Assembly: GCA_039621445.1 (NCBI GenBank)
Contig: CP154954.1
Span: 33,763,737 to 33,827,736, forward strand
Reading direction: 5' to 3'
DNA length: 64,000 nucleotides
Source of the DNA: Euglena gracilis
Lineage: Eukaryota
Shown: positions 25,394 to 59,024 of the stretch, piece by piece
Numbering within the stretch: position 1 is the stretch's first letter
Layout of the letters: every line of letters starts with the position of its first letter
The notes under the pieces: model-generated
Databases searched by the model: none
The model's input: the letters and a program-made list of their open reading frames with translations, nothing else
What the model was told of the DNA's origin: nothing
Made by a program: the position numbers and the translations under genes

Positions 25394-28300
25394 TTACACG
25401 TGGGAGCACCGCCTGAACTGGTTCACCGCCTTCCGGAGGCCTCTGTCCTTGGTTTCACCTTGGCGCTTTAGAGTTTTGTCACTCTGGTGGGCACTGGGCA
25501 TTTCGGGGGGGGGGGGAAGCCGCCCCCTGCCACCCCCTGGGCAGCCGCGGCCGTCGGGCCGGGGGGCCGACCGTCGCTGCCGCCTTCCTCTTCACCCCCT
25601 TGCCCTTGCCCTTGCCCTTCCCCTTGCCCTTGCCGGGGACGAGGGGCTTCTGGGGCAGCGCGGCCCCGGGGCCCCCCTTTCGAGCCCCCCCAACGTCACA
25701 GGGGGCTGGGAGGGGGGGGGCGGGGTGCTGGGCGGTGCCAATGGCCGGTGGTTTGTTGGGAGGAATTGGTGGGGCCGAAGGGGCGGCAGGAAACGTCCCC
25801 CTCCCCCTCCATGGACCGGGGGCCAACGTGTTGGGGGGGGGGGTCTGTGGCAGCCGCGCCAACGCCAGCGCAGGGGGCGCAACGGGGGAAAGGGTCGCCC
25901 CGCACGCCTTCCCACGGCGTTGTCCAGCCGAGGCCACACCATTGCTTGCCGGCCCTCGGGTGTGGGTTCACAATCCATTTTCAGAAAACAAGTGAGTCAA
26001 AGGGCCAAAATAATCACCCAAGCATCGTGTTCACATAGAAACTGTTCACGAATAAATCGGAACGTGCAATTTACTTAAGAGATCATCTGGTGAGAAAAAT
26101 TTAGTAAACTTTTGCAAACTATAAAATAAATAAATATAAATAAAACCCCCAACTCTCGCCTGTGCAAAACTGACACTCAGTTAATACCCTGTCCTCCCCC
26201 CGCCAAGACTTTGCACGTGTTGCAGCCAAGTGTCACAAAGGGCAGACCAGGGGTTGCACTGCTGAATGCACAATTGTTTTTTGTCGATTTTTCAAAAAAA
26301 TTACCCAAAAGTTTCTGCTCCCCGCAAAATAAACTTTGCGAGGCAGGAGGAAGTCGAAGGCTTATTTAGGGAGGAGGCTGCATCATTTTTTTTGGGCCCC
26401 TCTCCCGCTTCGGATTTTCCTGAACTTCAAAAAATACAAGAGTTAACCCCCCCAAAAAAGAATCCCCCCCCCTGGGCCGGGCGGAAAAAATGACACCCTG
26501 ATGGGGTAATAATGCAAACCAATATTACAATCCTTGCCAAAAAGGATTTTCTCCACAGCGCCAAGTTCTCAACAAATATACTTTTCTTCAAGAATGACTT
26601 CAGCCACGCAAACAATAAATCCCAGCAACGTCAAAGAAACTATGTACTTCTCCCAAATTCAAGGGCAAGCAGGGGCCTGGCTCTGGCACAGGTCCAGCAT
26701 GAACACCTGCTGCTCCGGGTTGCCCAGCACCCGGACCAGCCCCAGGCCGGGGGAGTAGCAAGTCCGGGCCGCCGCCCCACAGACAGGGAGGCCCCGGCAC
26801 CCGACGGTTCAACGTTTGCCTCCAGGACGAGAAAGGCGGTGCTAAACCTGTTGACGCAACGGCATCACCGCGAGGCGAGCTGGTTTCAAAAATATCCTGT
26901 CGGGTCCCGGCGTTTTGAAGCGGGCCCCAATTGTGCACCAAGGCTGGGTCACGCCCCGTTTCTGGGGTCAAATTAAAAAAAAAAACGACAGACTGCAAAA
27001 CACCAAAAAAATTCAACAAACGTGTATTTTGGGCATAAAAAGTGTACAAAAAGAAATCAGCATAAACCTCAAAGCAATAACCCCTGAATTTGGGGAGGGC
27101 ACCATTTTGATACAACTGTGTGCAAAATAGACATTTTTTTTTAGTATACAAATCCTTCAAGTTAAAGAACATATCCAAACATAACAGACTTTCCTTTTTT
27201 TTTGAGAAATGGCAGAAGCCCCCCCCCCTCGGGTTTTCCGCAGACTGACCGAATAGTAGCCCTGGGGGGCTTCTAATGGGGGGGGGTAATATGAAAGGCC
27301 TACTCTTGGGATAGGGCTAGGTTTTTGGTTAATTGAAAACAATAGGGTTTGAGGTTTCGGGAATAGAGTTAGGGTTAGGGTTTAGGCCTTTGGCCTAAAT
27401 TTCACCTAAATTCGGCCTAATTCAGGCCTAAATTTAGGCCTGATTTCGGCCCAAATCCCTAACTTTGGCCTAATCCTAACCATAATCCCTTTCTTAACAA
27501 CAATTGTAACCCTAACCCTGTCCCTAAAAATAACGAACACCACCAAAAACGTGTCGTAGAAAGCCCCCCTCAGCTTGTGTTCAAGAATGTGGACCTCCCT
27601 CCCCCGTTTAACTACTGGACCCCAAGGGGGGGGGGGGGGCAGTAGTTCAAGGCTGCCATTTGAAAATCCAATCGGTGGCTGGGTGTCCCAGATTCAAAAA
27701 GTGTGGAAACAGAGTCAAAAAGAGCGCGATTTCAAATAGCCTGGAAACGGTCCTGTTTTCATCACAAACAGGAAACTAATCGTGCACATAACCACGGAAA
27801 AAGTGTGTCCGTATTCATGACCACCAAACCATTCCGATCTAAAGGTATGAAACACATGCGAGCTGATACAAGTGGGTAAAGTGTTTTATCTCCAAGATGT
27901 TGCTGTATTAAAGAACTCCACAACCACAAGAAAAACTAAAATCTCACCAAAATTTTTGGCATCATAGCAAGAAGCGACTTTTCATATTTTTAACTGTGTT
28001 TATGAGATCTGAATCCGAGGATTCCTAAAAAAAATACCGTTTTGCTCCGCCGCGGAAGGTTATTCTGGTTTTTATGAAAGCATTCTGATGTACCTGAGAA
28101 TTTCAGTGTTACAATTCGCTGGATCCCCTCCCCTGAGCGCCCAGAATTGTCACCGACACCCTCCAAGGTTGTGAGGCGGTGCAAGCCACGCCACACCTTT
28201 CTGACTGTGGTCGGTGACAAGCCAATCAGGCCAAACTTAGGCCGCCCAATGAAAATTTGACTGGGCAAAGATCCCGAAAGCAGCACCAAAAACCCCGCAA

Positions 28301-58700: not shown

Positions 58701-59024
58701 AAAGTGTTTGGGGGTTCCATCCAGATCGGAGGCGGCCCACCAGACAGGCCGTCAGGGGGCCGCGTTCCACACCGCCTTGAACCTCGCCAGCTCTGCGTCC
58801 AGGTCCACGCCCTCCCCCCGCGGCCGCTCCGCCTCCCCGTCCGCCGCCGCCCCCGCCGCCCCCGGGCCCTCCGGCGCCGGCTCCGGCCGGGCGGGGCTGG
58901 GCTCGGCCTCGGCGGGCTCCGGCCGCTGGTCCGGGTCGGTGAGGCCGAAGGAGAACGTGTCGTTGGCGTTCTTGTTGCCGAACGGGAAGAGGGTGGGGCC
59001 CACGGCGGCCGGGGCCCGTGCCAT
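52735..59024 (-). CDS. Multi-exon gene region with a CID (RPR/Pcf11-like CTD-interacting) domain followed by an acidic low-complexity segment
   Basis: First exon MARAPAAVG... from 59024. Exons ~55160-55027, 54340-54272 and 54179-~54120 splice (GT-AG, then non-conventional 54271-54180) to SAAIIRVAKAGGALAPQWAGEVVALVEERVRGAPTPLARLAAWILLDTLVVHTHPVYASLFAPGLEALACSCLRPWAKY. A following exon reads RWVQVLSLTTLANIE. The pattern resembles CID helices (A.EIV.LIE....AP...KL...YLLDSIV). The last exon seen ends at a GT donor at ~52734 without a stop. Confidence 0.6.
54180..54271 (-). other. Non-conventional intron, 92 bp
   Basis: ggcCAGgcccgg...ccgtgcCTGccagc; removal gives PGLEALAC. Confidence 0.78.
55380..55775. 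mobile_element. MITE family with GAGTGCCTGCCCAGGCAGGC repeats; second copy at ~23760-24030
   Basis: Shared TGGAATGCCT, GGAGTGCCTGCCCAGGCAGGCCCCCC and terminal AAAATxCAGCCTG. Confidence 0.65.
58212..58696. mobile_element. hAT-like MITE, 16-bp perfect TIR, 8-bp TSD (intronic)
   Basis: CAGGGGTTTTCTTAAG / CTTAAGAAAACCCCTG; TSD GTCCAAAG at 58204-58211 and 58697-58704. Confidence 0.96.

Follow-up and report, generated by a model that had tools for sequence, protein, structure and literature searches.

The window, as we call the whole 64,000-nucleotide stretch of contig CP154954.1 analysed here, carries on its minus strand a euglenid nuclear gene for a PrimPol-like archaeo-eukaryotic primase (AEP) of the AEP_C962R family, which is divided into at least 14 small exons, the shortest of 14 nt. 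The gene is expressed and encodes a Lys/Gly tail, and homology together with RNA proves its extent from 39.18 to 25.48 kb. The window is treated as euglenid nuclear DNA because its intron types match those of Euglena gracilis, as described in a published intron study (PMC11170887), and because the closest named relative of the encoded protein is EG_transcript_2404. The DNA is GC-rich and dense in repeats and microsatellites, and coding sequence is split into very short pieces. GC content fails to tell introns from spacers; GC at third codon positions (GC3) is about 0.9 in the confirmed exons, and a blind scan of GC3 recovers those exons. On the plus strand, the region from 25 to 59 kb holds only antisense echoes of minus-strand exons, and an Rfam search of the whole window gave 0 matches.

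A phmmer search with a 120-residue frame of the AEP (window:35454-35813:-) against a database of 1.84 billion representatives retrieved 18 proteins at the threshold of E <= 0.001 (best E 6.9e-14). Eight of the 18 match the Pfam family PF23162 (AEP_C962R), seven of them at or above its curated cut-off of 23 bits. The closest sequences are P0001 (EG_transcript_2404, from EukProt) and P0002 (from JGI), with 68-70% identity in the matched stretches. A family hidden Markov model (HMM) built from 11 relatives and run on 2,203 open reading frame (ORF) pieces from both strands of the window identified 13 collinear minus-strand pieces running from 39106 to 26683 (best E 2.7e-15, seven pieces at E <= 0.005), while, of the 27 rows with E < 20, the 14 others lay scattered, none of them below E 2.7. 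Taken together, the phmmer matches and the HMM pieces extend the homology to family members across the whole catalytic core. Pfam scans of the window ORFs and read-through frames gave no AEP or PF23162 match, because the domain is split into small exons of 10-50 residues. A search for longer homologous proteins found none with the AEP exons as query, and a homologous-protein search with P0001 as query only 3 proteins. RNA was mapped over positions 25401-45400, using contigs from three runs and raw RNA reads from a fourth. The exons of this part of the gene are given below in the order in which they are read.

39029..39184 (-): exon for the helix preceding the AEP domain; E 0.0039 against an HMM of the P0001/P0002 N-part, and collinear with the family HMM
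37971..38065 (-): AEP exon THSSLMGGRD...KLKVPD; HMM E 5.5e-10, joint 37702>37971 in 4/4 runs
37644..37702 (-): AEP exon of 59 nt; joints on both sides in 4/4 runs, HMM E 0.0048
37117..37164 (-): motif I exon of 48 nt; joints in 4/4 runs, HMM E 0.044
36696..36725 (-): exon of 30 nt; joints in 4/4 runs
35697..35815 (-): AEP exon; X1 contig, HMM E 2.7e-15, 3' border taken from the contig end and the HMM end
35453..35556 (-): motif II AEP exon; X1 contig, HMM E 2.3e-13, 5' border uncertain within 35537-35581
35194..35349 (-): motif III AEP exon; X1 and X2 contigs, HMM E 0.00056
34250..34318 (-): exon GSLRMPLNDKW; HMM E 0.00012
33292..33449 (-): exon after the AEP core; HMM E 4.2e-07, X1 and X2 contigs
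32911..32924 (-): micro-exon of 14 nt, with TPWIT in frame; X7 contig
32455..32585 (-): exon; HMM E 0.0081, X7 joint
31047..31181 (-): C-terminal-domain exon WVWKRKGLKGAV; HMM E 0.0092, X1 contig
26683..26757 (-): exon GNPEQQVFMLDL; HMM E 0.0015, tblastn match to P0001
25479..25850 (-): last exon, with GK tail and stop; 5' border uncertain

At the last exon, the X2 contig at 25774-25981 overlaps only 25774-25850, and the GK tail and stop lie beyond its reach. The joined RNA-confirmed exons form an open frame through which motifs I, II and III can be read. AEPs are characterised by three such motifs: motif I is DxD/E, motif II is SxH and motif III is hD. In the RNA-supported spliced frame these appear as D-I-D at 37150-37142, S-F-H at 35525-35517 and F-D at 35218-35213, in columns that are invariant or nearly so across the family alignment. 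The 39.1-kb exon ends in ...EKDW, precisely where the relatives go on with THSSL, the start of the 38065 exon. At the other end of the gene, the GK tail occupies 25634-25584 on the minus strand, the stop codon is at 25481-25479, and GK runs are also found in the relatives P0001, P0004, P0008 and P0019. An earlier note on this DNA, made from the sequence, had proposed a minus-strand AEP with a basic GK tail in a long multi-exon layout; the AEP and its strand are borne out by motifs I-III, phmmer and the family HMM, the tail by its position and its occurrence in four relatives, and the layout holds up.

The joints 35815>36696, 36725>37117, 37164>37644 and 37702>37971 were recovered in all four runs, raw RNA reads included, and mark out the 30-, 48- and 59-nt exons. 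As each joint is covered by 2-3 raw reads, expression is low. Between 32585 and 33292 the X7 contig has 14 letters that occur only once in the window, at 32911-32924; the micro-exon so placed preserves the frame and yields the LxxWxxP motif of the family. All seven RNA-supported introns lack GT-AG borders, and none has GC-AG borders. The duplexes formed by their ends have energies of -11.7 to -22.3 kcal/mol, which places every intron within the lowest 0.1-8% of a null of 3,000 random intervals (-5.7 +/- 3.9 kcal/mol). The sequence CCAGG stands at or beside positions +3 to +7 in two of the seven (37970 and 35452), an element that the published description gives only as a consensus. According to PMC11170887, nonconventional introns of E. 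gracilis account for 16,151 of the 28,337 introns in that study, and their ends pair. Because all seven introns here are without GT-AG borders and have paired ends, they are assigned to this class, and the gene is mostly interrupted by euglenid nonconventional introns. With exons of 14 and 30 nt and not one GT-AG intron among the seven, exon calling based on GT/AG fails at this locus, and the exon borders of the earlier note were often wrong.

Among the candidates that were set aside, a GT-AG intron guessed at 35653-35582 has no RNA support, and the contig end and the HMM end both lie at 35697. Five loose-end contig strings (and two halves of one) are absent from the window and were taken as contigs of other loci. 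An X1 contig at 36729 runs on from a match to the 30-nt exon into 255 letters found nowhere in the window, so the organism has, at another place, either a close paralogue or an alternative upstream exon. Raw-read joints of the “opposite strand” or “goes back” kind, together with poly-G/poly-C loose ends, fall at homopolymers (31260-31282, 42822-42845 and 44768-44785) and appear to be artefacts of the library or of mapping rather than splice joints.

Relatives of the window protein are 589-808 aa long and have no Pfam match to a superfamily 3 (SF3) helicase. The structural model of P0002, built on a 13-row alignment (mean pLDDT 81.9), has AsfvPrimPol as its top Foldseek match (E 8.1e-07). Residues 154-558 of the model superpose on the Prim/Pol domain of African swine fever virus (ASFV) PrimPol (8iqb_A) with a VIA Z of 18.0 and a root-mean-square deviation (rmsd) of 3.6 over 236 residues; the AEP also matches human PrimPol (Z 14.0), the herpes simplex virus primase subunit (Z 11.9) and the AEP domain of monkeypox E5 (Z 11.8). 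Residues 2-141 match RNase III folds at Z 13.4 (9dei_B, a subunit of the T. brucei editing complex), 11.4 (5f3o_A, Entamoeba) and 9.3 (1jfz_A, Aquifex); helical matches with a VIA Z below about 13 can be generic, as the tool warns, and more than 15 RNase III/Dicer rows agree. P0004 (25.1 bits) and P0009 (17.2 bits) match the Pfam family Ribonuclease_3 weakly, with scores under the cut-off. On this model, P0002 is predicted to consist of a Prim/Pol fold with an RNase III-fold N-domain.

A helical N-terminal domain precedes the AEP in all seven relatives that have a complete N-part, and it is very divergent among relatives. In P0008 (1327 aa) the RNase III-fold/AEP protein is fused to an N-terminal DCD (development and cell death) domain (104 bits), which shows that N-terminal domain accretion occurs in the family. 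Environmental relatives come from twelve loci with 13 ORFs, 11 of which match PF23162. Five of the 13 ORFs (L002, L004, L006, L007 and L008; 1,123-1,165 aa) have an AEP that starts at residue 624-687, after an N-part to which no Pfam family corresponds; in the other environmental ORFs the AEP starts at 519-573 (L003 and L010) or earlier. L009 shows the same layout with a long N-part, split over two frames. When compared with the window, the N-parts of 12 environmental ORFs and of P0008 had no match in 59-52.7 kb. A family with the order RNase III-fold domain, AEP, small C-terminal domain and GK tail occurs in euglenids and environmental protists.

Since its catalytic motifs are intact, the window protein would most likely synthesise primers along a template and extend them, like ASFV PrimPol and human PrimPol. 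By analogy it would use a divalent metal and have no helicase of its own. It is predicted to end in a small alpha/beta domain and the Lys/Gly tail, the latter probably serving nucleic-acid binding or nuclear import, and the N-domain of the relatives may offer dimerisation or the binding of RNA duplexes.

Upstream of 39.18 kb, candidate exons were identified by a codon-usage score trained on the homology-supported exons (null mean -0.73, 95% point 0.18 bits per codon), which marks E1, E2, E3, E4/E4b/E5 and E6 as coding-like. The features of this region are the following.

58758..59024 (-): E1, candidate first coding exon with ATG at 59024-59022, FG-like and then acidic/Pro-rich; codon score 0.93-1.11, the strongest of the region
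56386..56463 (-): E2, candidate helical-domain exon; codon score 0.53-0.86, no family match
55035..55166 (-): E3, candidate exon with a QWAGE motif; codon score 0.83-1.06, no Pfam or PDB match
54116..54339 (-): E4, E4b and E5, candidate helical-domain exons; CAG acceptor at 54342-54340, frame change at about 54190, codon scores 0.34-0.78
53762..53908 (-): E6, last candidate helical-domain exon; codon score 0.42-0.83, GTGCG next to it at 53761
52881..53761 (-): either an intron (881 nt, GTGCG...CAG, phase 0 on both sides) or a 3' untranslated region followed by the spacer between two genes
52736..52880 (-): E7, acidic exon with an in-frame ATG at 52859-52857; ends G|GTGTGT in phase 1, codon score about 0.0-0.1
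43992..52735 (-): candidate GT-AG intron of 8,744 nt, repeat-filled; donor GTGTG, pyrimidine tract and CAG acceptor, read from the sequence
43960..43991 (-): candidate mini-exon of 32 nt, between a CAG acceptor and a GTGAGA donor; its phase matches E7
42455..43037 (-): Pro/Ala-rich exons 43037-42953 and 42586-42455; one X1 contig, about 45 nt between

The Pro/Ala-rich blocks pointed out in the earlier note are transcribed and spliced at 43037-42455, where they share one X1 contig, and a GT stands directly 3' of 42953 on the minus strand; these exons may be joined to those of the AEP. The reading of 43991-43960 as a pyrimidine tract, CAG, 32-nt exon and GTGAGA would place a further exon upstream, and this exon would complete the phase 1 end of E7 (G|GTGTGT at 52736). 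GTGTG is the 5' donor consensus of E. gracilis, and a pyrimidine tract with CAG the acceptor, according to PMC11170887. That the acidic exon ends on a GT without a stop, as previously claimed, is confirmed, and the transposon-filled intron of about 8.7 kb proposed to follow it is plausible as a repeat-filled GT-AG intron of 8,744 nt with donor GTGTG at 52735 and matching phase, which would join E7 to the 43991 mini-exon; here the argument is one of sequence logic only. Comparison of E7 and of the ORF at 43.9-43.3 kb with the N-termini of P0001 and P0002 was not significant (for E7, 44/300 and 105/300 shuffles).

Several repeats lie in and around the proposed large intron. A tandem repeat at 46700-47800 has up to 52 self-matches per position and reads WPS(L/G)VMMAI(R/I)GHDGH in minus frames. 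Palindromic elements with related CTCGAA-rich arms are found at 44152-44257 and 51505-51824, and look like miniature inverted-repeat transposable elements. An “EEALELANLL” piece at 51.3 kb was dropped as a coding candidate, being part of a palindromic repeat and closed by a stop codon. Another repeat occurs twice, at 45035-46051 and at 58219-59604, with 78-94% identity between the copies. The latter includes 576 bp (58670-59246) that the 45.6-kb copy lacks; E1 lies in this segment, so that repeat DNA flanks the exon on both sides. A C-rich tract and AG stand just ahead of the E1 ATG.

We tentatively favour, at a little short of an even chance, a single gene that runs upstream of 39.18 kb and encodes an AEP with a helical N-domain other than an RNA polymerase II CTD-interacting domain (CID). 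Upstream it would take in the Pro/Ala-rich exons and, across the 8.7-kb GT-AG intron, the acidic exon (52.88-52.74 kb); the helical-domain exons at 56.5-53.8 kb would probably belong to it as well. One gene is preferred because the 39.1-kb exon, like the Pro-rich frames up to 39.8 kb, has no ATG in frame, because HMM searches detect no N-domain of the relatives' kind between 52.7 and 39.2 kb, and because the coding-like part of E6 has no stop and splice options in phase are present. The GTGCG at 53761 after E6 and the CAG at 52883-52881 before E7 would give such a phase 0 splice, and the 79-codon in-frame tail that leads from E6 to TAA at 53521-53519 is noncoding-like, with a score of -0.45 to -0.53. 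E2-E6 are the sole candidate in the window for the helical domain that precedes the AEP in the relatives. A 7-nt in-phase repeat stands at both E6/E7 borders, with a chance of about 2-3% for an observation noticed after the fact. The ends of the candidate E6-E7 intron pair at -12.8 kcal/mol, a value inside the range of the confirmed introns and near the 5% point of the null when no correction is made for the 8 placements; this is compatible with an intron and is no evidence on its own.

A number of observations weigh against a single gene. The RNA mapping stops at 45400, so the linkage of E6 and E7 to the AEP is read from the DNA. At E7 a pyrimidine tract, CAG and ATG fall within 21-42 nt, which fits the acceptor of an outron equally well, and outron (trans) and cis acceptors are alike in E. 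gracilis (PMC11170887). Tight tandem genes occur here, because the next gene on the same strand starts 580 nt past the AEP stop. The tail after E6 ends in the stop TAA and is followed by stop-rich sequence, and known coding tails also dip to a codon score of -0.48. The fold of the window protein itself is predicted only through the model of its relative P0002. The RNase III-fold N-domain of the relatives has no HMM match in 59.1-52.7 kb, the HMM chain score of E2-E6 is 0 (55 of 55 control blocks scored at least as high), and shuffle comparisons of E2-E6 with the N-domains of P0001 and P0002 are not significant; the QWAGE of E3 aligns repeatedly with the (E/Q)WxGD motif of the relatives (3-37/500 shuffles, uncorrected for 35 tests), which is not significant after correction. 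There may instead be two tandem minus-strand genes, a possibility only slightly less likely than the single gene: E1-E6 would encode a small helical protein ending at TAA 53521-53519, and the AEP transcript, capped by a spliced leader, would be trans-spliced at CAG 52904 or 52883 and translated from ATG 52859. The acceptor region would suit this, as two CAGs stand behind some 40 nt rich in C and T, with the first ATG 21-42 nt further on, and the same layout is seen ahead of the E1 ATG and of the ATG of the gene downstream of the AEP. The distances are also similar, with 580 nt from the AEP stop to the next ATG and about 660 nt at E6/E7, and P0001 and P0002 begin shortly before the N-domain and have no extra domain. 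However, the upstream protein would be completed by the 79-codon tail, whose score is near the noncoding mean of -0.73 bits per codon, and an AEP that starts at ATG 52859 would lack the helical N-domain of all seven complete relatives, for which no substitute was found between 52.7 and 39.2 kb.

The earlier note had labelled 56.5-53.8 kb a CID, and under this proposal one mRNA from 59.0 to 25.4 kb would encode a true CID/VHS-type domain and, beyond linkers of acidic and of Pro/Ala-rich sequence, an active AEP of the PrimPol-like kind. We consider such a fusion improbable. Known CID proteins (Pfam PF04818) are Pcf11, Nrd1, Rtt103/RPRD and SCAF4/8, and the likeness of E2-E6 to them, an all-helical region of about 150 residues, spread over at least 5 exons and 3 frames, in which the order and spacing of short helix-like motifs resemble CID/VHS domains, is one at the level of motifs, to which no profile or structure search adds support. 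The splice options for one gene hold for a fusion too, and N-terminal additions are known in the family, both in the DCD domain of P0008 and in the N-parts of about 680 aa of environmental relatives. Against it, Pfam scans found no CID, VHS or ENTH family, whether in the 92 ORFs of >=100 aa, in three frames read through 52.5-55.3 kb or in 14 single-exon references (E up to 1 or 10); two PDB phmmer searches with exon queries gave no CID, and an atlas search gave nothing. These negatives are weak, because the same exon-level scans also miss the real AEP. A CID is present in 0/18 relatives and 0/13 environmental ORFs, and the N-domain of the relatives is predicted to have an RNase III fold. A search for longer homologous proteins with E1 found none. 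The only PDB match, of E4 to WD40, was rejected as a single 20-residue repeat whose E of 0.0056 is summed over 13 repeats. The CID and RNase III readings of E2-E6 both draw on resemblance, and under the favoured single gene the helical-domain exons would be a divergent version of the relatives' N-terminal RNase III-fold domain. If a CID-AEP protein were real, it would tie priming to transcription in a new way, with priming or nucleotidyl transfer recruited to transcribing RNA polymerase II, which the evidence here does not support. That this AEP copy is a paralogue in decay, or that its translation departs from the model, we regard as very improbable. Its low RNA depth (0.5-1.6 raw reads), the unsettled exon border at 35697-35537 and the contig diverging beyond 36729, which points to a close paralogue elsewhere, would be in keeping with decay, but the frame is open over all RNA-confirmed joints, the catalytic and near-invariant family residues are retained and the exons have strong codon bias.

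Beyond the AEP gene, a further minus-strand gene at 24898-18576, with ATG at 24898-24896, has hydrophobic exons, one of which includes the piece WAADRWGRRP; we take this to be a transporter signature of the major facilitator superfamily (MFS) and call the gene MFS-like. At 13200-18100, on the plus strand, there is a tandem array of about 5 kb with units ...HIHRTVTH... in open frames and strong GC and AT skew. At the other end of the window, coding-like pieces at 63111-62606 on the minus strand carry two knuckle-like Cys-X2-Cys...His...Cys motifs, and could be part of either a retroelement Gag or a zinc-knuckle protein of the cell.

The gene is of a known kind, AEP_C962R/PrimPol-like. No description of the RNase III-fold/AEP/GK-tail architecture was found in the literature within reach, from which most subscription journals are missing, and this is no proof of novelty. 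Literature searches on an archaeo-eukaryotic primase in Euglena, or on a C962R primase in kinetoplastids, found none. Judged by titles and the openings of abstracts, publications pairing archaeo-eukaryotic primase with RNase III are viral only; of those pairing PrimPol with Euglena, the one listed concerns telomeres.

Other AEP enzymes of Euglenozoa are the kinetoplastid mitochondrial primases PRI1 and PRI2 and the PrimPol-like PPL1 and PPL2, which are thought to be related to the primases of large DNA viruses. These four are absent from the 18 phmmer matches of the window AEP frame, a search that was no dedicated comparison with them. The euglenid-type RNase III-fold/AEP proteins P0001 and P0002 share with the window gene the AEP core, the C-terminal domain and the GK tail in the same order; they differ in an N-terminal helical domain without a sequence-detectable counterpart in the window, and the window copy has Pro/Ala-rich linker exons. 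Human PrimPol (PDB 7jk1) is, like the protein described here, a single-chain eukaryotic primase-polymerase without a helicase, and its AEP fold superposes on the P0002 model with Z 14.0 and an rmsd of 4.5 over 225 residues. In contrast, there is no match to it at the sequence level, no zinc finger of the UL52 type was detected in the window gene, and the flanking domains differ. Among the closest known systems is PF23162 with ASFV C962R (AsfvPrimPol), to which the gene is tied by the PF23162 matches of its relatives, by the Prim/Pol superposition of P0002 and by its own DxD, SxH and hD motifs. Identity to the viral chains is only 11-14%, the relatives have, in place of an SF3 helicase part, a GK tail and a predicted N-domain of RNase III fold, and the gene here is cellular and intron-rich. 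The window encodes a cellular relative of large-DNA-virus primases that merits biochemical study.

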